The notes: generated by a model from the letters alone, not told the origin. Shown: positions 22,019-53,908, counted from the first letter of the stretch. The stretch is DNA of 64,000 nt from Candidatus Omnitrophota bacterium (GCA_018062515.1 JAGOSC010000005.1:880-64879); one strand, 5' to 3'. Program-made: numbers and translations.

Positions 22019-25000
22019 ATGATGATTTTTAAAAGAAATAAAAGAAATTTAACCCGAAAAATAACTTCCACCTTTGTCTTATTTTCATTTATTTTCTCAT
22101 CAATACTACCTCCTCAAGTCTCGGCGCAGAGCGTATTCCATTTACCTATACCTGGGACCCTGTTTAATGTTACAAATACCTTTAATCCTTTTATCATTCA
22201 AGGGCTTACTGTAGATCCGCAAAATCCTCTTCATTTCAGTTTTATTATTGACACCGGCGACACGCAAACAAACGATCCAGACGCTTTCCGCTTAGAATCT
22301 ACAAAACTAGTCAAATATTTCTTAGCATCCTTAACCGTTCCCGAAGATCAAATGTGGGTTAACCTTTCTCCGTATGAAGGCAACCGCATTATTTCGGACA
22401 CATTTGGTCAAACCGAAATGGGCCGTGACTTATTAGCTCAAGATTATATTCTCAAACAAATGTCGGCTTCTTTAACGTATTCAGAAGAAGAATTGGGTGA
22501 AAAATTTTGGCACAGGGTCCACCAACGCGCAAAAAAAGAATACGGCGTTAAAGATATTCCTTTAAATACTTTTAATAAAGTATGGATCATTCCTCAGAAG
22601 GCAACCGTTTATGAACATGACGGCAGCGCGTATGTCGTCAATAGCCGGTTAAAAGTAATGATGGAAGAAGATTACTTAGCCTTAAACAAAAATATCGGTG
22701 AGCAAGCTTTTGGTATGAATAATGTCAAGCAAGATGAGGCGGAATCCACGAGTAAAGTTACTTCCGCCATCATTAAAGAAATTATTATCCCGGAACTCGA
22801 GAAAGAAGTGAATGAAGGCAGCCATTTTGCCAATTTGCGTCAAATTTATCAGTCGATGATTTTAGCGACCTGGTACAAAGTGAATTTAAAAGAATCACTT
22901 TTAGGAAAAGTTTATATTGATCAAAATAAAGTCCAAGGAATTGATTTAAACGACAAAAACGCGAATCAGAAAATTTATGAACAATATTTAGCCGCCTTTA
23001 AAAAAGGTGTTTACAACTATATTAAGGAAGACTACGATTCAGCCACTCATAAGTCAACACCTCGTCAATATTTCGCCGGCGGATTTGTTCCAAAAACCGA
23101 AGATAATGCGACTTTAGCAGAATTGATCACACGAGAGAAGACCACTCGTTTAGCCGCTACGGATCAGGCAGCTTTAACTCCGAAAGGAAACCAGATTCGA
23201 GCTGATTTCGCTTTATTAGAAGACTTAACCGATGAAGATGCTCCAAAGGTACAAAAACCGATTGAAAAAATTGAAGACGCGCAGATAGCTGTGGACCCTA
23301 ATTGGGTTGAGGACTATTTGGAAAATCTTTTCCCTGAAAACAGCTTTCCTAAACCAGTCAAACAAGAACCAGTCATTATCAGCAAAGAAAGAAAAGAATT
23401 AGAAGACGAATTAATCGCCAATCGTTCTCAATTCTCGGGCTCTAGAATAAATCGGAATATTAAGGAAAAAACAGGGCTTGACGTTCCCGAGGACACTGTC
23501 GATTATTTCGTCGAGCATAGTGGAACCCTCCCTGGATTAAATCACCGTGCTGACCGTTCCCAGGTTATAGGGCAACTTATCCGCAATCATCGTCCTTATG
23601 AAATCTCTAAATTATTTGCCTTATCAGAATCCAAAAATTTTGAAAGAAAATATTATCCTGCCTGGATCCAAGCTTTATCAAAAATATTTACTTTTTTGAA
23701 AGATAAAAATTCAACCATTAATACAGAATTAACCGTTCAAGTCAATTTAGACGGAATTCTTTTAATTAAAGACGGCTCGGGAGAAGAACTCAAGGCGTTT
23801 CAGAAATTGGATCAATTGCACACGGAAAAAGCTTCCGTCGGTGCACTGGCCCTTCAAATTGTCAAATTATTAACCCATGATTACGACGGTTTGGAACTCA
23901 CCAACACTAAAGAATTGTCAGATGATTTAGTATCCATCTTTAATATTTTCGGAATCAAGCCGACGGTGATTAATGATGCGTGGATGCAAACTGTCCTGGG
24001 ATACGGAGATTCTTCATTAAATCTTCAAGCTCTAAAAGAAGGCGTTGAAGTAACTGAAGCTGATGTCGACACTTATCTTTTCCGTCTGGACACAGAAAAA
24101 AGTTTAGCTCGTCAAGCCGGAGAGACTGTATATCTTTCTACGCGCTCAGAAGCCGTCGCTGAAATGATTAAAGAAAATAAATATGATTCTGCTCTTTTAG
24201 CCTCCATCGATGAAAAGGCTTTAACACCGGAAATTCTTACTGCTTTTGGCGGAAATGTAACGGCCGCACAAACGGTCGTGGCCGAGCGTCTTGAGGCTAT
24301 GCGCGTCGCTGATCCGAATGCCACCGTCGAGCAAGCTGTCGCCCGTTTAGCTTGGGAATATAAGCCGCGCGATATTCAAAACGTTTTTCCTGGAGACAAC
24401 TGGAAATTTATGTTTTTGGCCGCCAAAGCCGGCATGAAAGCTCCGATTCTTTTATTAGACTTGGAAGACGCAGTTGCGACAACTCGTAAAGAAATTGCCC
24501 GCGGTGTTATCGTACAATTGATCCGGGCTTTTAAAGGTGAAGGATTAACACAAGATGAATTTGATTTCTTGCAGAAGAACGCGCTTCAGGCTGATGATGA
24601 AAAATATCCGATGACTAGTTTCTTTACACAAAGTCTTGTCGACGGAAAAACTGTTTATACGTTAAATCCTGAAAATCAATTCCATAAAGATCAAATGGTT
24701 CTTTTCCGCCCGAATAATTTAAGAACAAAGTGGTCGGCAGGGGATTATTCTCAAGTTTTTCGTAAAGTCGGTCATTTGGTAGACGGTATTTATATGCCTA
24801 AAGTAGAAGGCCCAGAAGATATCAAAATCGGCGCGTCTATTTTACGCGCCATTCAGAAAGAACAAAACTGGGTCGTTGGTCGTCACAAAATTTTTGTTTT
24901 AACCGAACTTCCCGGCGCTGTTTTGACCGCTGAAAATATTTTAAAAATAGCTCCTGAAGTTGAAGAAGTTCAATTAGGAGTCGTCGATTACACCGCAGCG

Positions 25001-28000
25001 ACGGGTGGAAAAAATCAAGTTCAAATCGAACAATTTCCATTTATGCGTTATGCCTTATTACGCTTGGTTGAAGCCGCTAATAATATAGGGAAATCCGCCG
25101 GTTTAGGTATTACCGTTCAATTTACTCCAGAAGCAACAGCCGAGGATACAGTCAAGGCTATTAATATTGGCCTTCATCGCAAATGGAGCGTTCATCCAGC
25201 GCATTTGAAAGGCATGGAATCATTCATCGGAAAATTCCCAAAGATTGTCCGAAAAGATATTCAATATGATGAACTACAAGGATTTGATTTGGTACAGCTA
25301 GATCAATACGCTAGTGAAAGCCGTCCAATTTTAGCTCCTAAAGTTTTAACACCTAAAGATGTGGTTTTATCCAGAGCTGTGGTCACTGTTTCATCCGGAA
25401 ATATTGATGGGCTTAAAAAAGCTCTGGATTCAAATGCTGATACTATTATTTTGGATTTCGGGAAAAAAGAAAATTTGTCTGAAATTAAAAAAATATTAGT
25501 TCAGGCTAAAACAACAAAGAGTATTCTTGTTGTCGATGAGCTTGATTCCCTACAATCAATTAAACAAATTGTAACTGAGTTAAATGGATATTTTCAAGGA
25601 TTTAACCTGAATAACATACAGAATGCATCAACAGTAAGAGATGTGGATGGATTGTTATCAGAAGCAGAAAGTGATTTGGGATTAAACGCAGGCAGCTTAA
25701 AAATTGCCGTCAGCTTTAATGACCCGCAAGTGGTCGAGGAGCAATCCCGCTATCTCGGCACCGATCCAGCTAAAGCTCTTTTGTATTCCAGTCAACGCCT
25801 CAGCTGGGCCATCTTGAATTTGCCTACCATGCCGACTGAAGATTTAGATGATCCGGAAACGAGAGGATACAATTATTATCATTCTTTATTTATTGCCATG
25901 ACCGCTCATGCCGAAGTCGATTCCATCGACGGTTATAGCGCGGATGAGAATTTAACAGAACAAGTTGCGACCTCAGCCATTTGGGGATTTCAAGGAAAAC
26001 TAGCTAACTTGAATCAAGTTGATGAAATTACTGAAGCCATGAGCCCGCAGCGAGCTGGAATTATGCCAGAATTTTCTACTCCAGAGGAACGTAAAGCTTG
26101 GTTAGCTACTGCCGAAGGAAAAATTTATGTAGCACGTTGGAAAAATTCATTAGAACGAGATTTGGAACTGATGGATCTGTATGCCGAAGCGGATCAAGAA
26201 CGGCAATTAGGTGCGGTAGGTTATAAGGATCCTTTAACCGGCGCTATTGAAATCGTCGACGCTGCTTCAGCTCGAATTCCATTCCGACAATTAGAAAAAG
26301 CTTTAAAGACAAATCAATTAACCGATACGGAAAAAGTTCGATATGCAAAATCACGAGAAAAATTACTTTTAGCCATGCGTCCAGGCGGACGAGAAGGCAG
26401 CGGTGAAAAAGTTTTTGCCGGGCAAAAAATTACAGCTCCGGCCATTGTGATGCGTCCTTGGATGGTTAATGCGTTTGCTAAAGATGGCGATCAAAACCGT
26501 TATCATTTAGATGAAGCTTATGCCAACGCCTCAAAATTTAAAGGATTAGTTGCTCATGGATTATTGACGGTAACTAAGGCTTTAAGTTCTTTAAAAGCTC
26601 AATTACCGGCTTATAAAATTGAAGAAGTCGACGACGCTAAATTCTTAGCTCCTGTACGCTTTAATGATACGATTACCCCGGTCATTGATGTTACGAGTGT
26701 CGACAATGAAAAAGCCAATGTAAAAATTAGTGTAATCAATCAAGACGGAAAAACAGTCAGTGAAATCAAAGTTTTATTAATAGAAAGCACTGATTCTCAA
26801 ATCATTCCAAAAATTAATAATGATTCTTTAAAATCAGCAGAAAAGGTGCCGGCTTCTATTCCGGCCGTCATTTACGATTTTACTGATCCACAAAGTCCTC
26901 GAGAACAAACGTTCAAGCAGGAAATCACATCCAGTTATTTAGAAAATGTTCAAGGATCTAATTTGATTACAAGCCGGGATTTATTAAGTCAATTAGCTGC
27001 CTTTAAAATGATGGCCGGTACTTCCGCCAATGCCGTCCCAGGCCACATATTATTGAATGCAACAAATGTAAAATTCGGAGCTGAAATTCATTTAGGTGAT
27101 GTATTGACCGCCAAAGCTACTGTTCCTGCAGCTGATCAAATTAAATTGACTAAAGACAATCTTCCTAAAGTTCCAGTCACGATTGAAATCACGAATCAAA
27201 ATGGAGAAATGGTTTTAAAAGGACAAGTATTAAAACTCATGGAACCGGGTAAAGATCGAGCGATGCTGGCCAAAAAACCATACCTTCTGCCAAGAGGAAA
27301 AATTGTTACATCGCCGGATGAACTTCCAACACATATGGAAGCATATGTAGTCCGACGCGGTGAGCATGGTGACCCAATTGATGCGTTTAAAAAATCCATT
27401 CAACCCGTTCCCGATGTGGGCGATTATGAAGTCCTTGTCCAAGTTATGGCTGGAGGATTAAATTTTAATGGAACATGGGCCCTTCAAGGTCTTCCCATTT
27501 CTCCATTTACTTATCCTTTGAATAAATTCCACGATGAACAACGCTTAGGTAGTGATGCTTCAGGCATTGTTGTGGCCGTTGGCAAACATGTCACACAATA
27601 TAAAATTGGTGATCAGGTTGTTATGGCTACCGGTGAAGATGACCGCGCTGAAAAAGATCCTGATCATGGCGATACCATGCAAAAACGAACGTTTGTTATC
27701 ACCGGGTATGAAACTCCGGATGGAACGTTCGGTCAATTTGTCGCTTTGGATGAACGTCAAGTACATCCGAAAGAGGCAAATATGACTTGGGAACAAGCCG
27801 CCAGTTATCATTTAGTCGCCGACACAGCTTGGCGAGATATGAAATACAAACTGGGTGTTAAAAAGGGAGATACTGTATTAATCTGGGGGGCATCAACAGG
27901 AGTAGGAGCTTTTAATGTCCAGATCGCTAAATATTTAGGAGCCAAGAATATTGTGGCGGTTGTTTCCAGTGCTTCAAGAGCGGAACAAGCCAGAAAATTC

Positions 28001-29941
28001 GGGGCCACTCAAGTGATTAATCGAACTGAACTTCCTAAAATTTTGGGATACAGTGATGCTGAAATTTGGGGTGAACTCTCTAACAATCCCCAAAAGCAGC
28101 AAAAACAAATTGAAATGTTAAATAAGTTCAGAGAATATTTTCTTTCTCTAACGGGTGGTGAATTAGCCGATGCCGTTGCGGAACAAATCGGCCAAACAAC
28201 TTATCCAATTAGTCAATATTTAGCTAAAGATTCCGGAAAAGTCACTCATTTTGCCGGAACATTTGGTTTCAAATTTACCTTTATGGGAAAAGATTTACCG
28301 TTGGATGAGAATACAAAAAAGCAAAAAACGCCACTTCAAATGTTAGAAGAAGCTGGTGTACGCGACGCTAAACGAGTGCTGATATATGGTGCTGATCAAC
28401 TTTCTAAAGAAATTTTTGAGGAAGTTAAAAAATACAGCACTAATATTGCTTTCATCGTTAAAAGCCAAGAAGAACAAAATACAGTCGAAAACTGGGATTT
28501 AGAAAAGACATATATCAAAGGTATTGTAGATTTAAATCCGATTTCTTTTCCTGAAGATATGCCTACACCTCCTCATCCAGACATCCCGGCAGATAAACAG
28601 GCAAAAAATCTTGAAGAATTTAATGAGTATCGTATCAAAGTACTGGATCCAATCCGAGGATCGGTTGTAAAAGCTTTAGGCGGTCAGCCCGACTTAATTG
28701 TTGAAAGAGCGGGGAACAAAAATACTTTGGATATCAGCGTATTTGTCGTGCGTCCTCATGGCGTCGTAACATATGTTGAATCAACAAAAGGAAAACGTTT
28801 AGTCTTTGATGCCCGATTTATTTGGATGTTCCAAAAGCAAATTTATCCTTGGGTTCTTGGGACTCATTATGCGAACCACACACAAACCAAGGAATTAAAT
28901 GATTTAGTTTTAAAAGGCATCATAAGCGTACCTGAACCCGAAGTATTTTCTTGGGATGAATTACCCTTAGCCCAGCAGAAAATGTATGAAAATAAATTAA
29001 TCGCAACCAAAGCGTCTGTTCTTATCGGAGCTGTTAAACCAGGACTGAAAGGTCTGCCCGAAGAAACTGCGGCAGAACTGCCCATAAAAAACGAAGAGGG
29101 ATTGCTTCCGGCTTTCATGATTACCTCAAAAATCATAGAACCCACCATTTCTGATAATCAAATCAATCTTTATAAGAATCCGGCCATTGATCTATCTGAG
29201 AAATTCGCAATATTAGCTGCTAAATCAAAATTTAAAGACCCAAATAGCGCCCTAGGAATGTATGCCTTGGAAACAAAGGCATTTATACCTGCCATTGTTG
29301 AAAAAGTTTTCGGGAACACGGCGGAATTAGGGGAATTTAAATTAAAGGGGTTTACATCATTTGCTCCTAGCGGATTAGATGCTAATGATCAAATTCGAAC
29401 GACATTGCAAGTAAGCCGCAATTTTAAGATCGACGGGGATGATGTATACCTTAATGCCCGTATATCTTTGGATAAATTTTTTGTCGATTCCGGAAAATGG
29501 AAAGAGTTGTTGGTCGGAAATCAAATACTAAAAATGCCAATTAACGACTTAAACTCTTTAGGTTTTTACTTACCGTCTGAAAAAATTGACTCCGCTTTGA
29601 TTGGAGAAAAAAACGATGTTAGCCTGAATAATAATATCGCTGAATCCAAAAAAGAATACGGCGGTATTGACTTTAATTCAAAATTTTTGAATCTTCAGAT
29701 CAAGCGTGATGGACGAGGAATTCCATTGCCGGTGAATCAGCAGCCATTGATGAACATTCACATCAATGGATTTTATCCGGTTCTCATTGAAACAATGCCG
29801 ATTAATTTACCATTGATTCTCGGTTTAGAGACGGAAGAAGAAGATTCGAATTCAAGAACTCAACAAAGTTCACTTGATCCTTTGCATAAACAAGAAGACA
29901 TACGTATCGAAGATTTAGAAACAGCCAGCATACTAAACTAA
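22019..29941 (+). CDS. giant secreted mosaic protein A (2640 aa): signal peptide + shared N-module + CitE-like lyase + MaoC double-hotdog + crotonyl-CoA carboxylase/reductase-like MDR + shared C-module
   Basis: RBS GAGAGGAAA. Signal peptide ...SILPPQVSA|QS. N-module 22127-23085. CitE signature ILLLDLEDAV at ~24445. Hotdog VAHGLLTV at ~26545. CCR-like VLVQVMAGGLNFNGTWALQG at ~27430 with Rossmann LIWGASTGVGAFNVQIAKYLGA. C-module YGGIDFNSKFLNLQIKRDGRGIPLPVNQQP at 29655-29941. Confidence 0.85.
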   Translation: MMIFKRNKRNLTRKITSTFVLFSFIFSSILPPQVSAQSVFHLPIPGTLFNVTNTFNPFIIQGLTVDPQNPLHFSFIIDTGDTQTNDPDAFRLESTKLVKYFLASLTVPEDQMWVNLSPYEGNRIISDTFGQTEMGRDLLAQDYILKQMSASLTYSEEELGEKFWHRVHQRAKKEYGVKDIPLNTFNKVWIIPQKATVYEHDGSAYVVNSRLKVMMEEDYLALNKNIGEQAFGMNNVKQDEAESTSKVTSAIIKEIIIPELEKEVNEGSHFANLRQIYQSMILATWYKVNLKESLLGKVYIDQNKVQGIDLNDKNANQKIYEQYLAAFKKGVYNYIKEDYDSATHKSTPRQYFAGGFVPKTEDNATLAELITREKTTRLAATDQAALTPKGNQIRADFALLEDLTDEDAPKVQKPIEKIEDAQIAVDPNWVEDYLENLFPENSFPKPVKQEPVIISKERKELEDELIANRSQFSGSRINRNIKEKTGLDVPEDTVDYFVEHSGTLPGLNHRADRSQVIGQLIRNHRPYEISKLFALSESKNFERKYYPAWIQALSKIFTFLKDKNSTINTELTVQVNLDGILLIKDGSGEELKAFQKLDQLHTEKASVGALALQIVKLLTHDYDGLELTNTKELSDDLVSIFNIFGIKPTVINDAWMQTVLGYGDSSLNLQALKEGVEVTEADVDTYLFRLDTEKSLARQAGETVYLSTRSEAVAEMIKENKYDSALLASIDEKALTPEILTAFGGNVTAAQTVVAERLEAMRVADPNATVEQAVARLAWEYKPRDIQNVFPGDNWKFMFLAAKAGMKAPILLLDLEDAVATTRKEIARGVIVQLIRAFKGEGLTQDEFDFLQKNALQADDEKYPMTSFFTQSLVDGKTVYTLNPENQFHKDQMVLFRPNNLRTKWSAGDYSQVFRKVGHLVDGIYMPKVEGPEDIKIGASILRAIQKEQNWVVGRHKIFVLTELPGAVLTAENILKIAPEVEEVQLGVVDYTAATGGKNQVQIEQFPFMRYALLRLVEAANNIGKSAGLGITVQFTPEATAEDTVKAINIGLHRKWSVHPAHLKGMESFIGKFPKIVRKDIQYDELQGFDLVQLDQYASESRPILAPKVLTPKDVVLSRAVVTVSSGNIDGLKKALDSNADTIILDFGKKENLSEIKKILVQAKTTKSILVVDELDSLQSIKQIVTELNGYFQGFNLNNIQNASTVRDVDGLLSEAESDLGLNAGSLKIAVSFNDPQVVEEQSRYLGTDPAKALLYSSQRLSWAILNLPTMPTEDLDDPETRGYNYYHSLFIAMTAHAEVDSIDGYSADENLTEQVATSAIWGFQGKLANLNQVDEITEAMSPQRAGIMPEFSTPEERKAWLATAEGKIYVARWKNSLERDLELMDLYAEADQERQLGAVGYKDPLTGAIEIVDAASARIPFRQLEKALKTNQLTDTEKVRYAKSREKLLLAMRPGGREGSGEKVFAGQKITAPAIVMRPWMVNAFAKDGDQNRYHLDEAYANASKFKGLVAHGLLTVTKALSSLKAQLPAYKIEEVDDAKFLAPVRFNDTITPVIDVTSVDNEKANVKISVINQDGKTVSEIKVLLIESTDSQIIPKINNDSLKSAEKVPASIPAVIYDFTDPQSPREQTFKQEITSSYLENVQGSNLITSRDLLSQLAAFKMMAGTSANAVPGHILLNATNVKFGAEIHLGDVLTAKATVPAADQIKLTKDNLPKVPVTIEITNQNGEMVLKGQVLKLMEPGKDRAMLAKKPYLLPRGKIVTSPDELPTHMEAYVVRRGEHGDPIDAFKKSIQPVPDVGDYEVLVQVMAGGLNFNGTWALQGLPISPFTYPLNKFHDEQRLGSDASGIVVAVGKHVTQYKIGDQVVMATGEDDRAEKDPDHGDTMQKRTFVITGYETPDGTFGQFVALDERQVHPKEANMTWEQAASYHLVADTAWRDMKYKLGVKKGDTVLIWGASTGVGAFNVQIAKYLGAKNIVAVVSSASRAEQARKFGATQVINRTELPKILGYSDAEIWGELSNNPQKQQKQIEMLNKFREYFLSLTGGELADAVAEQIGQTTYPISQYLAKDSGKVTHFAGTFGFKFTFMGKDLPLDENTKKQKTPLQMLEEAGVRDAKRVLIYGADQLSKEIFEEVKKYSTNIAFIVKSQEEQNTVENWDLEKTYIKGIVDLNPISFPEDMPTPPHPDIPADKQAKNLEEFNEYRIKVLDPIRGSVVKALGGQPDLIVERAGNKNTLDISVFVVRPHGVVTYVESTKGKRLVFDARFIWMFQKQIYPWVLGTHYANHTQTKELNDLVLKGIISVPEPEVFSWDELPLAQQKMYENKLIATKASVLIGAVKPGLKGLPEETAAELPIKNEEGLLPAFMITSKIIEPTISDNQINLYKNPAIDLSEKFAILAAKSKFKDPNSALGMYALETKAFIPAIVEKVFGNTAELGEFKLKGFTSFAPSGLDANDQIRTTLQVSRNFKIDGDDVYLNARISLDKFFVDSGKWKELLVGNQILKMPINDLNSLGFYLPSEKIDSALIGEKNDVSLNNNIAESKKEYGGIDFNSKFLNLQIKRDGRGIPLPVNQQPLMNIHINGFYPVLIETMPINLPLILGLETEEEDSNSRTQQSSLDPLHKQEDIRIEDLETASILN

Positions 29942-29957: not shown

Positions 29958-32900
29958 GTGATTAATCAATTTAAGAAGTTTCAGCCACGATTTGCTTATA
30001 AATTATTCTGTGCGGTCATCAATGTTGCGTTTATTTCAACTTCGGTTCTCCCACCGAGTTATGCTCAGGTTTTACCAACCGCATTTGCATTACCGCAACC
30101 CGGGGCAATGGTTAACCTAACGGAGAAGTTTATGCCGGTCATCGTGCGCGGCATAACCATTCATCCTGAAAATCCGCTTATGTTTGATTTTATGGTGGAT
30201 CAAGGCGACACAACTCTTGATGCGACCGCCCTCAAAAACGAATCGTTAAAACTAATTAAATACTTTCTCGCTTCCTTGACCATTCCAGAAAAGGAAATGT
30301 GGGTCAATCTTTCTCCGACGGAAAAAGATAGAATTATTCCTGATTCGTTTGGAGAAACCGAAATGGGACGGGATCTCTTAGCCCAAGATTATGTTCTCAA
30401 ACAGTTGACGGCCTCTTTGATGTATCCGGAAAAAGAATTAGGCCAAAAATTCTGGCAGCGCGTCCGTGAACGGGCGAAATCCGAATATGGTCTAACAGAT
30501 ATTCCGATGGATACATTTAATAAGGTATGGATTGTGCCTAAATCAGCGGTTGTTTTTGAAGGTAAAAATTCTGCCTTTGTCGTTGAGAGTGAGTTGGACG
30601 TCATGCTTGAAGAAGAGTATTCCCAGTTAGATGGTGTCATCCAGGCTCAAGGTTCCTCGTCGATAAAAAGTAGTTCAGCAAAAGAAATTATTAAAGAAGT
30701 CATTTTACCGGAAATCAAAAAAGAAGTTAACACGGGAGAGACTTTTGCGAATTTGCGTCAGATTTATAATTCCATGATCTTGGCTTCCTGGTATAAAGAT
30801 AATTTAAAAAAGAGTCTTTTAGGACAAGTATACGTCGATCAGAATAAAATACGCGGCATTGATGTTGAGGATAAAAATGTCAAACTAAAGATTTACGACC
30901 AATATATGAAGGCCTTTAAAAAAGGTGTTTACAACTATATAAGAGAAGATTATGACTCAGCATCTAAGAAAATGGTTCCGAGAAGATATTTTTCCGGTGG
31001 GGAAACATTTACAAATTTAAAAATCACTCGCCAGGATATAGATGATTCCGGGATGCTAAGCGCTTCACAAAAAGATGCAATGAATCCGGGTAATACCGAC
31101 GTCATTGTGACAGTAGCGTTAGCTGACTTTGGAAGCAATGTCGATACGACAACTTTAAAACAAGCCGCAAAAGAACTCAATGAAGATCAATCCATGGTTG
31201 GCGAAAATCCTGAGAATAAAAAGGGAATAACCGGAGGATTTTTAACGGACGGCAATTTGGTTGTATATGATAATCCTAAAATTGTCCTTTATCCGGAAAA
31301 TGTTAAAGATCATCCTGATGTCGACACAATGTATCAAATGTTTGAATCCATCTTGGGTCAAAATTCTGAAATTGTACAATCAGTGGGTGAAAGGATTGAC
31401 ACGAAAGAAATTCACGTCGAAGAACCATATGAAGTTACCGTTAACGGGAAAAATGAATCACGAGAAAGTTTAATTAAACAATTAGGCGGTTTAGGTCTTT
31501 TAGGCATGTCGGTACCGGCTGAATATCGAACCGTTGAACTCGGTGGTGATGGTAAAAAGGCCTTCCCTAAAATTGTTAAATCATTGGCGGATAAATGGGC
31601 ATGGTATGGGAACGCGTCTATTGGATCGCTGGTGCGTGTTCATGGCGGCGTGTCTACATTTCCAATTTTAATTTACGGAACGGAAGAACAAAAGAAAAAA
31701 TATTTGCCAAAATTAGCCTCGGGAGAAATGATCGGCGCTTATGCGTTGACGGAATCGAATCATGGGTCTGATACTCTTAATCAGGAAACTGTATTTGATA
31801 CCACCGGGGTTATCGTCGAGCAAGATGGCAAAAAGTATGTAAAAATAAATGGTTCAAAACAATATATTACCAATACACGTTTTGCGGATATTTTCACCGT
31901 GTTTGTGTCTGTCCAAAATCCTGAATGGAATAAGGATCAACCAGACGCAGCCCCACAATGGTTAAAAAGCGTTTTTGTCGTTGAGAAGAAAGATTCCACA
32001 CCGGATACTTTTTCATTTGGACCCGAAATGGAAAAAATTGGGCTTCCCGGATCTGCGACCCAAGAAATATTTTTTAATGATTTACTGATACCGATGGACA
32101 ACCTTTTAGGCAAATTAGGCCAAGGCGATAAAATCGGCATGAGTATTCTTAATTATGGACGATTAGCGATTGGCGCCGGATCTTTAGGCGGAAGCCAACG
32201 TATTCTCGATGAGAGTATACGCTGGATCCTTACTCGTCAGCAATTCGGACATCCCTTGGCCGACTTTAGCGCTGTTCAAACCAATATCGCCGAAATGGAA
32301 GCGAATATTTATGCGATGGAAGCCTTGGTTTATGCCGTCAGCGCGTTATTAGATAACAATGAAGCACCGGGGTTAGAAGCATCAATAGCCAAGGTCTGGG
32401 GGTCCAACACATTTCAGAAAATTGCCCAGATGGGTGTCAATCTGCGTGATGATGAAGGTTTTCTCAAATCAACGCATGTTAACCGCATACTCGGTGATTC
32501 CGTTGTCATGTCTATTTTTGAAGGGGCGAATGAAGTTCTTTCGTCACAGGTCATCGCCGCTTTATCCATGAAATACTTAGACAAAAAAGATAAATTATTA
32601 GGCAGCTGGACAATCCCTCAAGATAGCCCTGTTTACGACGAGAGTTTGCATATAAAACAGGCTGCCGAAACAATTATGCAAGCCAAGGATAAATTGATTA
32701 AAACCTACGGAACGACGTCGGTCTTGCGGGAGCGCGGGAAAGAACATCTTCAAGAATATTTTAATGCATTTGGATTAATGATCGCCGATCTGTACGTATT
32801 AGTGAATACGCTTAATCGAACACATCATTTGCTTTTGTCAAATCCTCAATCACAACATGAAAGGAATTTAGCTAAATTGGTTGTTGAAGAAGGTATTCGT

Positions 32901-35141
32901 CGAATCGAAAGCAATGCCGGGCTCATCTTGACTCAGGATGAAATTAAACTAGTTAATCTGGGTACCGAAAGCCCTGTGGAGCTCAAAATACAAGTAGCAA
33001 AACATATTTTAGAGAATAATAAATTTATGACGTGGACCCCTGCGACAGCCACCGACGAAGAAATAGTGAGTACGGAAGGCGCAAAACCGGTATCAACATT
33101 CCTCTTTAGTGGTCAAAAAGGTGAATACCCGGAATCAGCTTTACCATTTATGGAAGATAATGAGCAGTTTGCTGAAGGCCCGATGTACGAAGGTCTTAAA
33201 GAAATTTTCGCGGATATGGTCGTTTCTAAACAGATTAATAAAAATTTGGATGAAGGCCATTTAAAACTCACGCAGATTTGGGACGAACTGAAAGAATTAG
33301 GCCTTTTTGATCCGGAATACTCTACCATTGTAAAAAATTGGGTGAATCAATTTGCGGCATATGCCAGCCCGTCGCTAGGACTTACTTTAGCCGTTCATAA
33401 CGGCGTAGGTTCTATGCCCATTAAACTTTTTGGAAGTGATGCGCAGAAGGAAAAATATTTACCGCTATTTAACTCTGGTGAAAATATCGCGGCCATGGCC
33501 ATCACGGAAAAAGAGCATAACTCAGATATTTATTCTGACAATACGGTATTAGAAACGACCGCCACGCCCATCACCGACGAGAATGGAACGATTGTTTCTT
33601 ACCAAATCAAGGGTTCAAAAGATTATGTGATTAATGCGAGTGACAACAGCATATATATTATCTTAGCTTCGGTTTTGAATGAATCACAAGGAAAACAAAA
33701 ATCTTTATTTATCGTCGAGCATAACGATACTGGAAAAATTTCGGTCACAGAACAAAAAAATAAAATGGGTTTGAGATCAGCTATGACCGCGGTTGTTGAT
33801 TTTAATATCACCGTTCCGGCAGACCGCATGATCGGTGAGGCGGATCAAAGCGATATGATCAACCAAAACATTCAAGGTTATACGTGGACTGCTTTGGGTT
33901 CCATTTATTTAGGCGCCAGTGACATTGCGTTTAAAGAAACTTTAAAGTACGTAACTCAGCGCAAACAATTTTCCTACAAAAAAGATAATGTTTTAAAAAG
34001 AAAATTCATCGCGGATTTCGGTGCCGTACAAATATCCTTAGCCAACTCAGAAGCCATGTTATACGCCTTGGAATCGATGGTCTATGCTGTCAATGCAGAA
34101 TTTGATAGCGGCCGTAATCCCGTTTTTGAATCAGCTATTTTGAAAGTGATCGGGACAAACACATTCCAGGATATTGCCCGTCAAGGTGTGCAAAAACACG
34201 GCGGCATGGGTTTCGGGCGGGAAACGGAAGTCGCTAAATATTTCGAAGATTCCATCGCACTCGCGCAGATTGGCGGATCAAATAATGTCCTATTAGGTGT
34301 TGTTATCGGCCCCTTGGGATTAACGGCTTTAAAAGAAAATTCCGGCCTGAGCATTTTGGAAAACTGGAATATTCCGGAAGGCCCGTTGACGGATGATGTC
34401 CTTAGAATAAAAGTAGCCGCTAAAACTATTTTGAATATGGTGAGTGAATTTGAAAAACGCGGCATTACGAAAAATAACCCTTCCGCCAGTATATATTTTC
34501 ACCTGCTTGGAGAAATGTTTGTCCAACTCTATGTGATGACCACGACGGTGAACCGCACTCAACATCGTTTAGATAAGGGCATGGATTCTGCGCATGAAAT
34601 TGGTTTAACAAAAACCATTGTCATTGACGGGATACAAAAAATACAAAAATTAGCGCAAGAATTACGTATTTCTGCGCCATCCACGCCATCCCTAAACAGT
34701 GATCAATTGGTGGCCTTGAAAACAGAAATCGCGGAATCAACATTAGAACGCACGACCGATTGGGAAAAACCACAAACAGAAAAAGATATAGCCATGGTGG
34801 CAGAAACCGAAGATCCATACTTGATGAATAAAGCAGATCTCAATACACCGTCGACAAAAGATAAGGTAGGGGGTATTAATTTAGACCGTTCCTTACTGAA
34901 TATGCAAATCCTCCGGGATGAGGGCGGTGTTCCTCTTCCGCTCGACGATCAACCGCTTTTGGAAATGAATATCGAAGGGTTTATTCCGGTGATCATTCAA
35001 ATTACACCGGCTCTAAATGTGCCTTTATTGTTGGGGTTAGCCGGTGAAAAGAAAGATTCAAATTCAAACAGCCAACGCGGTTCGCTAGACCCTTTGCAAA
35101 AAAAAGAGCATATGCTTGTAGAATATGAGGAACGCAGCTAA
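29958..35141 (+). CDS. giant secreted mosaic protein B (1727 aa): signal peptide + shared N-module + two acyl-CoA dehydrogenase units + shared C-module
   Basis: GTG start 16 nt after A. Signal ...VLPPSYA|QV. ACAD signatures GAYALTESNHGSD (~31740) and AAMAITEKEHNSD (~33490), each followed by a ~150-aa helical extension. C-module GGINLDRSLLNMQILRDEGGVPLPLDDQP at 34870-35141. Confidence 0.85.
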   Translation: MINQFKKFQPRFAYKLFCAVINVAFISTSVLPPSYAQVLPTAFALPQPGAMVNLTEKFMPVIVRGITIHPENPLMFDFMVDQGDTTLDATALKNESLKLIKYFLASLTIPEKEMWVNLSPTEKDRIIPDSFGETEMGRDLLAQDYVLKQLTASLMYPEKELGQKFWQRVRERAKSEYGLTDIPMDTFNKVWIVPKSAVVFEGKNSAFVVESELDVMLEEEYSQLDGVIQAQGSSSIKSSSAKEIIKEVILPEIKKEVNTGETFANLRQIYNSMILASWYKDNLKKSLLGQVYVDQNKIRGIDVEDKNVKLKIYDQYMKAFKKGVYNYIREDYDSASKKMVPRRYFSGGETFTNLKITRQDIDDSGMLSASQKDAMNPGNTDVIVTVALADFGSNVDTTTLKQAAKELNEDQSMVGENPENKKGITGGFLTDGNLVVYDNPKIVLYPENVKDHPDVDTMYQMFESILGQNSEIVQSVGERIDTKEIHVEEPYEVTVNGKNESRESLIKQLGGLGLLGMSVPAEYRTVELGGDGKKAFPKIVKSLADKWAWYGNASIGSLVRVHGGVSTFPILIYGTEEQKKKYLPKLASGEMIGAYALTESNHGSDTLNQETVFDTTGVIVEQDGKKYVKINGSKQYITNTRFADIFTVFVSVQNPEWNKDQPDAAPQWLKSVFVVEKKDSTPDTFSFGPEMEKIGLPGSATQEIFFNDLLIPMDNLLGKLGQGDKIGMSILNYGRLAIGAGSLGGSQRILDESIRWILTRQQFGHPLADFSAVQTNIAEMEANIYAMEALVYAVSALLDNNEAPGLEASIAKVWGSNTFQKIAQMGVNLRDDEGFLKSTHVNRILGDSVVMSIFEGANEVLSSQVIAALSMKYLDKKDKLLGSWTIPQDSPVYDESLHIKQAAETIMQAKDKLIKTYGTTSVLRERGKEHLQEYFNAFGLMIADLYVLVNTLNRTHHLLLSNPQSQHERNLAKLVVEEGIRRIESNAGLILTQDEIKLVNLGTESPVELKIQVAKHILENNKFMTWTPATATDEEIVSTEGAKPVSTFLFSGQKGEYPESALPFMEDNEQFAEGPMYEGLKEIFADMVVSKQINKNLDEGHLKLTQIWDELKELGLFDPEYSTIVKNWVNQFAAYASPSLGLTLAVHNGVGSMPIKLFGSDAQKEKYLPLFNSGENIAAMAITEKEHNSDIYSDNTVLETTATPITDENGTIVSYQIKGSKDYVINASDNSIYIILASVLNESQGKQKSLFIVEHNDTGKISVTEQKNKMGLRSAMTAVVDFNITVPADRMIGEADQSDMINQNIQGYTWTALGSIYLGASDIAFKETLKYVTQRKQFSYKKDNVLKRKFIADFGAVQISLANSEAMLYALESMVYAVNAEFDSGRNPVFESAILKVIGTNTFQDIARQGVQKHGGMGFGRETEVAKYFEDSIALAQIGGSNNVLLGVVIGPLGLTALKENSGLSILENWNIPEGPLTDDVLRIKVAAKTILNMVSEFEKRGITKNNPSASIYFHLLGEMFVQLYVMTTTVNRTQHRLDKGMDSAHEIGLTKTIVIDGIQKIQKLAQELRISAPSTPSLNSDQLVALKTEIAESTLERTTDWEKPQTEKDIAMVAETEDPYLMNKADLNTPSTKDKVGGINLDRSLLNMQILRDEGGVPLPLDDQPLLEMNIEGFIPVIIQITPALNVPLLLGLAGEKKDSNSNSQRGSLDPLQKKEHMLVEYEERS

Positions 35142-38100
35142 GTGATTATTCAGTTTAAAAAATTCCAGTTAAAATTTACCTATAAATTTCTTTGTACGGT
35201 TATCAATATTGCGTTTATCTCGACTTGTGTTCTACCGCCGAGCTATGCTCAGGTTTTATCTTTACCCCAACCTGGAACCATGCTGAATGTAAGCCCGGTT
35301 TATACTCCGCCCATGATCAAAGGACTGACCATTGATCAAGAAAACCCGCTGCATTTTCAATTTATTATTGATACTGGAAATGAACAATATAAAGATAATG
35401 ATCAGCTTCGAGAAGAATCAACACGCTTAATTAAATATTTCCTTGCTTCGTTAACAGTTCCTGAAAATGAAATGTGGGTGAACCTTTCACCCCATGAAAA
35501 AGACCGCATTATTCCCGACGGGTTCGGCCAAACCGAAATGGGCCGTGACCTTTTAGCCCAGGATTATATTTTAAAACAACTCACCGCGTCATTGATTTAT
35601 CCTGAAAAAGAATTAGGGGCTGAGTTTTGGAAAAAAGTGCATGACCGCGCTTGGAAAGAATTTAAAACAAAAGAAATTCCATTGGATACATTTAATAAGG
35701 TTTGGATTGTTCCGGAAAAAGCAGTGATTTATGAACATGAAAGAAGCGCTTATGTTCTGGAAAGTCATTTAAAGGTCATGTTGGAAGAAGATTATCAAGC
35801 ACTTATATCCAATACTTCGTCGACATCCGCGGACAATCAAAAATTAAAAGATGATAATCGGCAACTGACAGCGTCGATCATGAAAGAAATTATTATTCCG
35901 GAAATCGAACGGGAAGTTAATGAAGGTAAAAATTTCACAAATCTACGCCAAATTTACCAGTCGATGATTTTAGCGACGTGGTACAAGATGAACTTAAAAG
36001 AGTCATTACTTGGACAAATTTACGTCGATCAGAATAAACTCATAGGGATTGATCTCGACGATAAGAATGTTAAAGACAAAATTTACGCGCAGTATATAGA
36101 AGCCTTTAAAAAAGGTGTTTATAACTATATCAAAGAAGATTATGATCCTGACCAGCAAAAGACCGTTCCTCGTCAATACATTTCGGGCGGTTTCTCGACG
36201 GTAGGAAAAGATAACGCAACGCTCGTTGATCTCGTTGGCCGAGAAATCATTAAGTCCAGCGCCGGCTATGTGAGCGCGGATCAATATAAACGTATTTCCA
36301 AAGGACTTAAACCCAGCGGTGATCAATTCAGAACAGATGTTCAATTATTAGAAAACGGAAATAATGGAATTATTAACGCCGATCAATCCATGCTGGTTAA
36401 GATCGACGATGCTTTACAAAAAAATCCTTCTCAAAAAGTTCATACGGTTAAAGGATACACACCGGCTGGAAATCCAATTGAAGATGTTCTTACATATCAG
36501 GATATCAGCGACCAATCCAATCAATTTGCCCATGTATTAAAAAATGCGGGGATTGAAAAAGGCGACCGTGTGGCTGTTATGTCGCCGGTCTCAGGTTTGG
36601 AAATGATCGCGTCTTTGGGAATTTGGAAAGCCGGGGCAGTACGTGTACCGTTTAAAACCCAATGGACGTCGAATGAAATTAAAAAATATTTGACCCAAAC
36701 CACGCCTGAAGCGATGGTTATTCTAAATGTGTATTACGATCAACATTTATTGTCAATTTTAAATGAATTTAAAGATTTAAAAGTTTATATCATTTCTTCC
36801 GGCGAAACTATTTCTTCAACACCTCACGTCATGACTTTTCAAAATAGTTTAATCAATCAAACAACGGATTTCTTAAATATTTCTTCCGATCCGAGGGATT
36901 TAGTCCAATTGGCTATTTCCACCGGAACAACCGGTGAATCAAAAATTGTAAAGCAAACACAAGAAAACTTTTATTTCAGTACGCAAGAGTATAGTGAGTG
37001 GCTTGATGATGCTCCTCAAGGCCCTGTCGTCAGCACTTTACCGCCGGGAACGTACGGAAGCCATAGTATTTTAGGAACTGTTCTGCGAGGACGTCCGTTA
37101 TATATCGTTCCCCGTTTACCCAAAAATCAAACGACCGATGAATATACCCAGACATTATCGGAAACATTGAAGAGAACAAACGCGAAAATTTTATTCGGCG
37201 TTCCAACGCAATTTCAGGCTTTAGCCATGACGGGAGAAAAATTCCCCGGCCTTATTGGTTTAAGCCGAGGAGCCGCGTTAAGAGATGTAAAACAATTATT
37301 TGAGTCGGTGACCGGAGGACGGGTTATCGAAGGTTATGGATTGACAGAAGGAACCAGTTCAGTCACCAATCCGATTAATAGAGATAAGCCGGGTACCGTC
37401 GGAATTCCGTCAAAAGATACGACATTTAAAGTCATTAATCCATCCACGCAAAAAGAACTTCCCATTGGTGAAGAAGGTGAATTAGTGTTAAAAGGCCCGC
37501 AGGTTATGGCCGGATATTGGGAAGATCCTGTGGGCACTAAAGCCGCTTTTACAGAAGATGGATTTTTAAGGACCGGCGATTTGGGCTCCATCGACAAAGA
37601 TGGTTATATAAAAATCACCGGCCGCTTAAAAGACATTATTATTTCCGGCGGTGATAATGTCATTCCGTCGGAGGTAGAAAAAATTATTAAAACCAACGCC
37701 GCTATCGAAGAAGTTACCGTCGTCGGTATAAGTGATCCTGGCCGTTTTCCTGATGATCCGGCATTTGCTGAGCTCGTTGAACATTGGGGGGAAGTTGTTG
37801 TCGCGTTTGTCGTCCCGAAAAAGGGCATGAATACTTTAAATTTAGAGCCATCCATACGAGAATTTGCCAAAAAGAATTTGGCTGCTTATAAAGTCCCCAA
37901 AAAAGTTGTTGTCCTCAATAAACTGCCTCTGCTAGGAGACCTTTTTAAAATTGACCGTCAACAACTCATCCGAGGCGACAATGACAATGCTGTTTTAGTT
38001 ATTCCTTCAGCCATCAAGAATATAGAAAATATAAAAGCCAAATTAGTGTTAAATTTTATGATAAATGAGACTTTAAGAAATGGTTTAATTTCCCAAATTG

Positions 38101-53814: not shown

Positions 53815-53908
53815 TACCAAAGATCGTGATAGATTCTGTGTTGACGATGTGTACAATATCAATTATATTATTTACACATATCCACGGTCTAAACGCTTAA
53901 AAAAATTC

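Follow-up and report, generated by a model that had tools for sequence, protein, structure and literature searches.

A near-invariant C-terminal module on giant multi-enzyme proteins of Omnitrophota, tentatively one half of a lineage-specific bracket

The four giant proteins encoded in the window, i.e. the analysed stretch of 64,000 nucleotides from a Candidatus Omnitrophota bacterium, all end in the same element of about 55 residues (GGIDLN..L.LQIKRDG.G.PLP..QQP....I.GF.PVII.ITP.NLPLLLG), which is followed by a tail of 31-38 residues. This C-module is a real, autonomous and strictly C-terminal element. We tentatively regard it as one half of an Omnitrophota-specific bracket, in which a signal peptide and a conserved N-domain precede the cargo and the C-module with its charged tail follows it. 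From this we infer a function in sorting, and it is quite possible that the C-module is a new C-terminal trafficking or anchoring signal that a shared partner recognizes. The Omnitrophota are a widespread group of mostly uncultured nanobacteria, which are thought to depend on hosts or prey, and their long proteins are a known puzzle. What was a vague “multi-enzyme giant” becomes a defined and searchable class with thousands of members, a fixed bracket and almost Cys-free mature chains, which raises the testable claim that ordinary cofactor-dependent metabolic enzymes are exported. If this is true, bacteria would possess both a route for secretion or targeting and a metabolic site that are as yet not known from them, the two HMMs could be used to find the partner machinery through phylogenetic profiling, and metabolic reconstructions of Omnitrophota that treat these enzymes as cytoplasmic may be wrong.

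The giants A (22019-29941, 2640 aa), B (29958-35141, 1727 aa), C (35142-45560, 3472 aa) and D (45567-52088, 2173 aa) are encoded by four closely packed ORFs on the + strand, which form a same-strand tandem array with intergenic gaps of 0-16 nt. Gene C has a GTG start immediately 3' of the stop codon of gene B, and its Shine-Dalgarno sequence lies inside the final codons of gene B. The signal peptide of A (22019-22126, aa 1-36, ending in PPQVSA before QS) has an n-region rich in K/R, a hydrophobic h-region and a c-region of the A-x-A type; those of B (29958-30065, GTG start, PPSYA before QV) and C (35142-35249) also comprise aa 1-36, and that of D comprises aa 1-31 (45567-45659, PPSLA before QS). 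The N-domains extend over aa 37-355 in A (22127-23083), aa 37-348 in B (30066-31001), aa 37-350 in C (35250-36191) and aa 32-341 in D (45660-46589). The cargo of A (23084-29659) contains no cysteine and is HpcH/malyl-CoA-lyase-like, MaoC hydratase and crotonyl-CoA carboxylase/reductase-like, as indicated by Pfam matches and by NCBIfam TIGR01751 at 342 bits. B carries two acyl-CoA dehydrogenase units (31002-34868), C an acyl-CoA ligase, an acyl-CoA dehydrogenase and a methylmalonyl-CoA-type mutase with a B12-binding domain (36192-45299; Pfam matches, NCBIfam NF006944 at 520 bits), and D carboxyltransferase alpha- and beta-like units with a cNMP-binding domain (46590-51815). The C-module cores follow at 29660-29824 in A (aa 2548-2602, from GGIDFN to NLPLILG), 34869-35036 in B (aa 1638-1693), 45300-45464 in C (aa 3387-3441) and 51816-51983 in D (aa 2084-2139). 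A first-pass annotation of the window had aligned these C-termini correctly, but its start coordinates were 1-5 nt off the cores and out of frame, and its end coordinates included the stop codons.

The four C-modules have 20 invariant columns in common, and their cores are pairwise identical to 43-71% at the amino acid level, with A and C being the closest pair although their genes are not adjacent. Recent gene conversion among the four copies was rejected, as the nucleotide identity is just 57-76%. In a six-frame HMM scan of the window, the module was found exactly four times, each time at the end of a giant ORF, and a 49-sequence profile gave E = 1e-27 to 1e-32 with a library of 1.84 billion proteins; the similarity of the window C-modules is far above chance. 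With the profile, 5,605 protein clusters were matched at E<=1e-3, of which 2,799 also passed E<=1e-10. Thousands of further carriers thus came out of the HMM scan that the first-pass annotation had suggested, and the possibility that no other proteins carry the module is refuted. Among the top 150 matches, the distance of the best-scoring copy to the C-terminus is always 1-48 aa, and a second matched stretch is absent from 146 of these proteins; with the module being terminal and single, the idea that the giants are concatenated units with internal C-modules was rejected. All 44 module-bearing genomic loci belong to Omnitrophota MAGs. The core is kept across unrelated cargo and across MAGs, with hardly any variation among thousands of proteins. 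The C-module gave no match to a Pfam, NCBIfam or PDB family, and it is also not an internal enzyme subdomain, which the first-pass annotation had named as a finding that would refute its idea.

The first-pass annotation had described the proteins as otherwise unrelated, which does not hold: A-D have in common not only the signal peptide of 36 aa (31 aa in D) but also the N-domain of ~315 aa, with 52-60% identity, and this co-occurring N-domain had been overlooked. Almost all representatives of >770 aa with an intact N-terminus carry a signal peptide and the N-domain, and the complete module ORFs in the 44 loci all begin with the N-domain, the sole exceptions being apparent frameshift splits. 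The genes of the bracket are arranged in tandem arrays. The N-domain is the stronger conserved element of the two, and trafficking may primarily be determined by it. The C-module is missing from many N-domain proteins, and some of these have TM-like segments downstream of the N-domain, in part at or near the C-terminus (P0141, P0128, P0228); such alternative C-termini fit with an anchoring or retention role of the C-module. There are also minimal carriers that consist of the N-domain and the C-module only, such as P0153.

The co-occurrence of N-domain and C-module, the same-strand tandem genes with short gaps, and the minimal proteins such as P0153 would agree with a head-to-tail assembly as well, in which the C-module binds the N-domain of one particular or of any other protein and the exported enzymes polymerize to form a coat or matrix that surrounds the cell or lies on its surface. 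In that case, the C-module would serve as a generic connector and not as a sorting signal. The cargo sets do resemble pathways that would benefit from co-assembly, and a peptide that orders only upon binding would account for the low pLDDT of the monomer described below. We nevertheless consider such an assembly rather unlikely, as the module stays undocked in an AF2 model with paired N+C alignment, as the many N-domain proteins without a module indicate that the N-domain does not need it, and as a near-invariant sequence encodes neither order nor specificity, in contrast to the pair-specific, divergent codes of PKS/NRPS docking domains. The short “GIDLN” likeness of N-domain and C-module is not significant (hhalign probability 1.3%), and a duplication of the N-domain segment “GIDLNDKN” as origin of the C-module was rejected with the same value. 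A docking domain that orders the four proteins in the PKS sense, which had been suggested as an alternative to sorting, is unlikely because the module is nearly identical on thousands of proteins and thus encodes no partner specificity. Its near-invariance rather favors one common reader over pairwise docking codes.

Are the carriers exported? For the 109 signal peptides of the family, the median length is 36 aa and the charge of the n-region +3. Position -3 of their cleavage sites is occupied by small residues, and in 97 of 109 cases Q is found at +1; A at -1 was imposed by the search pattern. In the same set, K+R make up 0.46% of the mature residues +1 to +20, as compared to 11.5% overall. 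The mature parts of the window giants do not contain a single Cys in 9,868 residues, where ~98 would be expected from the 0.99% Cys of neighboring ORFs (P(0) ~2e-43). In the whole family, 56 Cys were counted in 158,900 residues (0.035%), and 71 of 94 proteins have none. Cys makes up 1.76% of the signal peptides of the family, and the only Cys residues of B (aa 18), C (aa 18 and 29) and D (aa 18) lie within the signal peptide. The carriers have a pI of 5.0-5.6. In autotransporters, periplasmic disulphide formation blocks the passage through the outer membrane (PMC3419692). With a Cys-free mature chain, Cys in the signal peptide and a scarcity of early K/R, the carriers look truly exported from the cytoplasm, and this probably in an unfolded state. 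The Sec-type signal peptides that had been recognized before are genuine, and Cys avoidance and the early K/R-free region add independent evidence for export.

The cargo includes CoA, ATP, NADPH, FAD and B12 enzymes, PGK, PGI and PGM, as well as response-regulator receiver and cNMP-binding domains, and starch synthase, PGM and UDPGP were found as cargo, too. Such cargo is typical of the cytoplasm, and its function outside a cytoplasm-like milieu is hard to see. As it requires cytoplasmic cofactors and regulators, one may think of a cytoplasmic scaffold or encapsulation tag, i.e. the N-terminal hydrophobic segment would not be used for export, and the module would direct the enzymes into an assembly inside the cell. 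Encapsulation peptides indeed follow the same logic, with one conserved peptide at the end of diverse enzymes, and P0107 has the module without a signal peptide. This is nevertheless highly improbable, since the exclusion of Cys from the mature chain and not from the signal peptide, the cleavage site between A and Q, and the early K/R-free region argue for real export. Moreover, there are no shell genes in the flanks of the loci, and there is no likeness to known targeting peptides. Cargo of encapsulins and microcompartments has no signal peptide and bears a short peptide that is helical or of the LTVGSL type, whereas the carriers have signal peptides and a module of 55 aa that is not helical in the AF2 model.

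In an AF2 model of P0153, for which the paired N+C alignment comprised only 36 sequences, the module has a pLDDT of 30-50 except for the GF.PIIINVTP stretch with 68-78. No strands are assigned over the module in this model, and it is neither helical nor docked onto the N-domain. The lack of a confident fold with these 36 sequences touches on the predicted disorder that the first-pass annotation had named as a point against its idea. When the sequence itself is inspected, three or four segments of alternating polarity suggest beta-strands. The hydrophobic stretch has a Kyte-Doolittle hydropathy of 1.3-1.8 (19-residue window), which is the level of the signal-peptide h-region, and GF.PVIINITP..NLPLLLG might therefore be embedded in the membrane to hold the cargo at the envelope, be it as inner-membrane stop-transfer or re-entrant segment or as an oligomeric small outer-membrane beta-barrel like that of trimeric autotransporters. 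The segments of alternating polarity and the TM-like segments of some module-less N-domain proteins would agree with such an anchor, type V secretion typically involves extended signal peptides and Cys-free passengers (PMC3419692), and the low pLDDT of the monomer is compatible with an obligate oligomer. We regard a membrane anchor as unlikely, because three prolines and a polar Asn are conserved residue by residue, which a lipid-facing anchor would not need, and because the acidic tail of 31-38 aa without a terminal aromatic residue is against the positive-inside rule and the outer-membrane beta-signal. Furthermore, no YadA_anchor, autotransporter beta-domain or other known anchor family was found in the Pfam and NCBIfam scans.

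How could the C-module then function as a sorting signal? The carriers would be threaded via Sec, their signal peptide would be cut between A and Q, and the Cys-free chain would remain translocation-competent in the periplasm. The C-module alone would not be a folded domain. It would comprise amphipathic beta-type segments that are separated by a Pro-rich loop, together with the very hydrophobic stretch with three prolines, and it may represent an extended recognition peptide that becomes ordered upon binding one shared partner. This partner could be an envelope receptor, a translocon, or the envelope itself, and would either retain the cargo at a common site outside the cytoplasm or send it there, while the role of the N-domain might be comparable to that of an N-terminal secretion or retention domain. 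The logic would be akin to that of other C-terminal signals for secretion or anchoring, e.g. the T9SS CTD, the T1SS signal or the T5SS anchors. Around the 44 loci (20-kb), we found no receptor, protease or translocon and no conserved flanking gene. The proposed sorting signal is partly supported, namely by the C-terminal module on unrelated cargo and by the evidence for export of the carriers; an export or processing apparatus was not found next to the genes. A C39-peptidase ABC exporter was rejected as partner, since an apparent cluster of four loci turned out to be generic ABC similarity; the C39 ABC gene adjoins only one of 45 loci (L020).

The tails after the core were said to be acidic on every giant, which is clearly the case for A (29825-29938, 38 aa, 11 D/E versus 3 K/R) and C (45465-45557, 31 aa, 10 D/E versus 1 K/R), but only mildly so for B (35037-35138, 34 aa, 7 D/E versus 6 K/R) and D (51984-52085, 34 aa, 6 D/E versus 4 K/R). 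The tail of A ends with ETASILN and thus with a terminal S-x-L-N motif, and that of C ends with AREPEDLSYLN, which places it in a subgroup with a REPE..S.LN end. Among 299 tails, ~27% end with N and 20% with LN, and a (K)AREPE..S.LN terminus is recurrent. Such ends could point to a processing or quality-control tag, with a periplasmic protease or chaperone (e.g. a PDZ-type tail-specific protease) reading the module together with the terminal S-x-L-N. This factor would trim, mature or degrade the giants, possibly freeing enzymes at D-x-A-M-L or SSPV linkers, and linker motifs are in fact much more frequent than expected at module borders: the window giants have 7 copies of D.[AS]M[LVIF] versus 0.4 expected, and 88 copies of SSP[VILM] were counted in relatives versus 4.8 expected. 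A processing tag is still quite improbable, as the 55-aa core is universal but only a minority has the terminal motif, as no protease is linked to the loci, and as a degron does not need 55 conserved residues. The D-x-A-M-L linkers are also not internal starts for enzymes without signal peptide, as none of the seven ATGs has a Shine-Dalgarno-like sequence, which the real gene starts do have.

Which known systems come close to the bracket? The CTD of T9SS substrates (PF18962/TIGR04183, Por_Secre_tail) likewise combines a Sec signal peptide with a conserved C-terminal element of <100 aa on unrelated cargo, and in Bacteroidota it is likewise lineage-specific with many carriers per genome. The T9SS CTD profiles did not match the four giants (Pfam, E<=0.01-0.1), the four C-modules alone (NCBIfam, E<=1) or the 49 C-modules (Pfam and NCBIfam, E<=1). 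A Por_Secre_tail match in one of 33 full-length relatives (1.8e-6) is not attributable to the module, because the 49 C-modules are without Pfam match. While T9SS CTDs are autonomous Ig-like beta-sandwiches of 70-100 aa, the module is not predicted as beta-sandwich (a weak negative, with 36 sequences in the AF2 alignment), is followed by a charged tail, is almost always paired with an extra N-domain, and is attached to Cys-free cargo of cytoplasmic type. A T9SS is not known in Omnitrophota.

Long signal peptides and very large, Cys-avoiding passengers are also features of type V secretion, where TpsA has the TPS domain as conserved secretion domain near the N-terminus and trimeric autotransporters have a short anchor at the C-terminus, but the C-module of 55 aa is proline-rich and is followed by an acidic tail instead of a terminal aromatic residue, and autotransporter (PF03797), YadA_anchor (PF03895) or TPS (PF05860) matches were not obtained in Pfam and NCBIfam scans. 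T1SS substrates and LapA-type adhesins resemble the carriers in being giant, acidic and poor in Cys and in having an unstructured signal within the final ~60 residues. LapA-like proteins, in addition, have a conserved module at the N-terminus, behind which a short protease motif lies. In contrast to T1SS substrates, the carriers have Sec signal peptides and no RTX repeats, and a C39 ABC transporter is exceptional beside their loci. Sortase, exosortase and rhombosortase substrates (LPXTG, PEP-CTERM, GlyGly-CTERM) are signal-peptide proteins with a motif, a hydrophobic stretch and a charged C-terminal tail, but the motif of the module has ~35 aa rather than 3-5, its hydrophobic stretch is itself conserved with three prolines, and its tail is long (31-38 aa) and acidic in place of a basic cluster. 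No NCBIfam match to such signals was found in the 49 C-modules, and it is correct that the module contains no LPXTG or PEP motif; no known sorting signal was matched.

Taken further, it is conceivable, albeit doubtful, that a cysteine-free “second metabolism” leaves the Omnitrophota cytoplasm by a new two-signal route with N-domain and C-module as recognition elements. Multi-enzyme polypeptides would then serve glycolysis, glycogen turnover and CoA-ester carbon metabolism at the cell surface, in an enlarged or specialized extracytoplasmic compartment, or in the interior of a host or prey, whose cytoplasm would supply the cofactors, and a new system for secretion or organelle targeting would use the C-module as its address label. 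Chlamydia reportedly secretes enzymes of glycogen metabolism into the inclusion, which would be a similar case of a bacterium of the wider PVC group that exports ordinary enzymes of sugar metabolism. There, however, type III secretion signals are used and not a Sec signal with N-domain and C-module, the proteins are not fused giants, and Cys avoidance is not known. We found no description of such an export route, and the C-module, the N-domain and the cysteine avoidance are absent from the Omnitrophota papers that were consulted.

The carriers range from 85 to 5,808 aa. Most stand-alone small C-module proteins are fragments on short contigs, and P0005 and the ORF of locus L024 were rejected as small C-module proteins, as they are the ends of fragmented giants. 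Genuine-looking small module ORFs are only P0107, without signal peptide and N-domain, and P0095, with a signal peptide but without N-domain; such ORFs speak against the bracket. Another small C-module protein, P0085, is preceded by a transposase.

The four giant ORFs A to D are packed on the + strand of the window (A, 22019-29941, NCBI product MBP9853540.1; B, 29958-35141, MBP9853541.1; C, 35142-45560; D, 45567-52088, MBP9853543.1), with gaps of 16 nt (A-B), 0 nt (B-C) and 6 nt (C-D). The GTG start of gene C immediately follows the TAA stop of gene B, the GAGGAA Shine-Dalgarno sequence for gene C lies inside the last codons of gene B (35127-35144), and to judge from the sequence the genes A-D look translationally coupled. 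All four proteins follow the same five-part plan: a signal peptide (36 aa in A, B and C, 31 aa in D) that ends in ...PPxxxA and is followed by Q, a strongly conserved N-domain of ~315 aa (52-60% identity among A-D), a cargo of unrelated enzymes, a C-module of 55-56 aa, and a charged tail of 31-38 aa. The C-termini align as the first-pass annotation had written them, with 20 invariant columns and a pairwise core identity of 43-71%; its start coordinates were 1-5 nt off the in-frame cores, which lie on the + strand at 29660-29824 (A), 34869-35036 (B), 45300-45464 (C) and 51816-51983 (D). A six-frame HMM scan of the 64-kb window detected four C-modules, each located where a giant ORF nears its 3' end. 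The tails had been described as acidic on every giant, which is clearly so for A and C, both ending in ...S.LN, and mildly so for B and D. Among the tails at 29825-29938 and 45465-45557 and those of relatives, one subgroup has the end (K)AREPE..S.LN, which may serve at the C-terminus as a recognition motif of its own; of 299 tails, ~27% terminate in N and 20% in LN.

The shared C-module is real, and it is much larger in extent than could be seen in the first-pass annotation. A profile of 49 C-modules, searched against 1.84 billion representative proteins, matched 5,605 proteins with E<=1e-3, of which 2,799 reached E<=1e-10. In all of the best 150 of these 5,605, which range from 85 to 5,808 aa in length, the top-scoring copy stops 1-48 residues short of the C-terminus, and a second matched stretch is absent from 146 of them. 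A scan of 185,579 species, each represented by a single genome, with two peptide patterns that both derive from the C-module subtype of the window, gave 44 confirmed loci, all 44 in Omnitrophota MAGs, including some labeled "uncultured Planctomycetales" and one Candidatus Zapsychrus. The source names of the protein matches are likewise Omnitrophica or Omnitrophota, with a few archaeal labels on short contigs that are probably binning errors. A second subtype of the C-module was also found (..QQDMAQL..IQGF.P.IIEIKPA.N.PI.SELQQKLQ).

The C-module belongs to a bracket, with signal peptide and N-domain at one end and the C-module at the other. According to local HMM searches, signal peptide and N-domain start nearly all representatives longer than ~770 aa that have an intact N-terminus, and in the genome loci the N-domain begins every complete C-module ORF, the exceptions being adjacent ORF pairs that resemble frameshift splits and fragmented long-read contigs. 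One minimal protein, P0153 (549 aa), consists of N-domain, linker and C-module only. Same-strand tandem arrays of bracketed genes occur at other loci (three genes at L006, four to five at L031, two to three at L009, L011, L022 and L043), and the array of four in the window fits this pattern. The N-domain family is larger still (>1,487 among the matches listed); many N-domain proteins have no C-module, and some of these carry TM-like segments after the N-domain, in part at or near the C-terminus. Two unusual arrangements were noted. At L002 (3634-10363), and also at L003, an N-domain fragment ORF is followed by a RelB/YafQ toxin-antitoxin pair, by PPX, PPK and a ROK kinase as separate ORFs of normal size, and then by P0107, a stand-alone 120-aa ORF with a subtype-II C-module and no signal peptide; this order gives the impression that a bracketed giant gene was split up into an operon, or that the opposite took place. 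P0095 (L048, 480-965; 161 aa) has a signal-peptide-like N-terminus and a C-module only, and adjoins an aa3-type cytochrome oxidase operon.

Are the bracketed proteins really exported? Three independent lines of sequence evidence say yes. Firstly, among 109 intact N-termini of the family, the signal peptide has a median length of 36 aa and a positively charged n-region, position -3 is taken by small residues, and position +1 is Q in 97 cases; the A at -1 was fixed by the search pattern itself. Secondly, K+R make up 0.46% of the mature residues 1-20 in these N-termini versus 11.5% overall, and a K/R-poor early mature region is a classical requirement for Sec passage. Thirdly, cysteine is avoided: the mature parts of A (22127-29938), B (30066-35138), C (35250-45557) and D (45660-52085) contain none in 9,868 residues, whereas ~98 would be expected from the other ORFs of the window with 0.99% Cys (P(0) ~2e-43), and the sole cysteines of the giants, at positions 18 and 29, are within signal peptides. 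Family-wide, 56 cysteines occur in 158,900 residues (0.035%), 71 of 94 proteins are Cys-free, and the N-domains have 3 in 29,700 residues, as compared to 1.76% Cys in the signal peptides. As ordinary housekeeping genes of the window (among them homoserine dehydrogenase, aspartate kinase, ValRS and iPGM) lack the bracket and have a normal Cys content, the bracketed set forms a distinct class. An exclusion of cysteine from the mature chain, yet not from the cleaved part, is as expected if the chain passes unfolded through an oxidising periplasm. Similar avoidance is a property of T1SS substrates and S-layer proteins. Disulphide formation is known to stall autotransporter secretion (PMC3419692).

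This evidence for export stands beside a cargo that, by sequence, is typical of the cytoplasm and would require CoA, ATP, NADPH or B12, which is a paradox. Protein A (cargo 23084-29659, + strand) contains an HpcH/malyl-CoA-lyase-like unit, MaoC hydratase units and a crotonyl-CoA carboxylase/reductase (TIGR01751, 342 bits); B (31002-34868, +) two acyl-CoA dehydrogenases; C (36192-45299, +) an acyl-CoA ligase, an acyl-CoA dehydrogenase and a methylmalonyl-CoA-type mutase with B12 domain and intact DxHxxG motif; and D (46590-51815, +) carboxyltransferase alpha- and beta-like units and a cNMP-binding domain. Relatives carry PGK, PGI, PGM, UDP-glucose pyrophosphorylase, starch synthase, CofD, NUDIX, HEAT repeats and response-regulator receivers. 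A cytoplasmic scaffold tag, with a signal peptide that is never used, would accommodate such enzymes, and in view of the three lines for export we give this idea almost no credence. Taken together, the cargo of A-D (lyase, hydratase, Ccr, acyl-CoA dehydrogenases, ligase, B12 mutase, carboxyltransferase) resembles an ethylmalonyl-CoA or 3-hydroxypropionate-like CoA-ester enzyme set; it includes no thiolase or other Cys-dependent enzyme. A linker motif, D-x-[AS]-M-[LVIF], recurs where the N-domain ends, where one cargo unit gives way to the next and just ahead of the C-module (aa 1746 in A, aa 410 and 1610 in B, aa 414 and 1748 in C, aa 1357 and 2068 in D), with 7 observed versus 0.4 expected sites in A-D, none preceded by a Shine-Dalgarno-like sequence, and a 15-fold enrichment in relatives. 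Higher-GC relatives have SSP[VILM] in its place (88 observed versus 4.8 expected), and the linker might mark a junction for processing or recombination. A role of the C-module as a tag for a protease or chaperone, tied to these linker motifs and the S-x-L-N end, is improbable.

Neither the C-module nor the N-domain has a Pfam or NCBIfam match, be it in the four giants, as isolated modules, or with 49 modules searched singly (E<=1), and neither matches any PDB sequence. One of 33 aligned N+C relatives matched Por_Secre_tail, the Pfam family of T9SS CTDs (1.8e-6), which none of the 49 isolated C-modules did. In a model of P0153 built from 36 N+C proteins in a paired alignment, the C-module reached a pLDDT of 30-50, only the GF.PIIINVTP stretch attaining 68-78, and it was not docked on the N-domain. 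Because of this low pLDDT and the missing docking, the C-module is read as a predicted extended peptide that would need a partner or oligomer to become ordered. A generic head-to-tail binding of C-modules to N-domains, building an enzyme coat, would make use of both ends of the bracket and appears unlikely beside the undocked model. The first-pass annotation had also considered a docking domain for assembling the four proteins; such pair-specific docking is not supported, since no specificity resides in the C-module and its two closest copies, those of A and C, are not on neighboring proteins. The hydrophobic stretch of the C-module has a Kyte-Doolittle value of 1.3-1.8, equal to the signal-peptide core, and one alternative is anchoring in a membrane, perhaps through an oligomeric barrel as in trimeric autotransporters. 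However, the stretch contains three prolines and an Asn, each of them conserved at its position, which points to protein recognition rather than plain lipid anchoring, and we regard the anchor as having a rather slim chance.

The new sorting signal suggested in the first-pass annotation is still unproven and is the best available reading, function, partner and destination of the C-module being what we infer. Four observations (the module sits strictly at the C-terminus, hardly varies between unrelated cargo, goes together with signal peptides and lacks an autonomous fold) lead us to favor, tentatively, a C-terminal trafficking or anchoring signal that would be read after Sec export. Sec would export the unfolded, Cys-free chain, one shared partner would then read the C-module, and the N-domain would act as second determinant beside it. 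The logic resembles that of T9SS CTDs, of T1SS/LapA-type giants and of sortase-type tripartite signals, and type V secretion shares long signal peptides, Cys-poor passengers and an N-terminal TPS domain or short C-terminal anchor, but the match to each of these systems fails in at least one defining feature. We found no counterpart to a bracket with Cys-free, cytoplasm-type cargo, which appears to be new. Papers on long Omnitrophota proteins describe "multi-enzyme metabolic" giants and SP+TM topologies, and in these papers there is no mention of N-domain, C-module or cysteine avoidance; some of their SP+TM calls may stem from the bracket with its two hydrophobic stretches.

No conserved partner gene was found beside the C-module loci. 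The only recurring neighbors (8 of 45 loci) are PMT_2/TPR membrane proteins, polytopic proteins near bracketed genes in the window and at L017, L018, L019, L020, L025, L036 and L044, the L044 representative showing TPR repeats only. Those of the window are at 15567-17228 (PMT_2 match), 17983-19344 (no Pfam match) and 57745-59502 (TPR repeats only). Glycosylation of exported Ser/Pro linkers might be their role; alternatively, such proteins may simply be abundant in the phylum. Further downstream, a protein with an HTTM domain and a vitamin-K-dependent gamma-carboxylase lumenal domain (59502-61166) is followed by a PIG-L deacetylase (61172-62569), and any link to the Glu-rich tails of exported proteins would be pure speculation. 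A full-length serpin with an N-terminal hydrophobic segment (53849-55177; Pfam E 3e-127) is encoded 1.8 kb downstream of the array. At the other end of the window, a low-GC stretch (1-2012; 0.33) that includes a phage-type integrase gene (930-2012) may mark the border of a mobile element.
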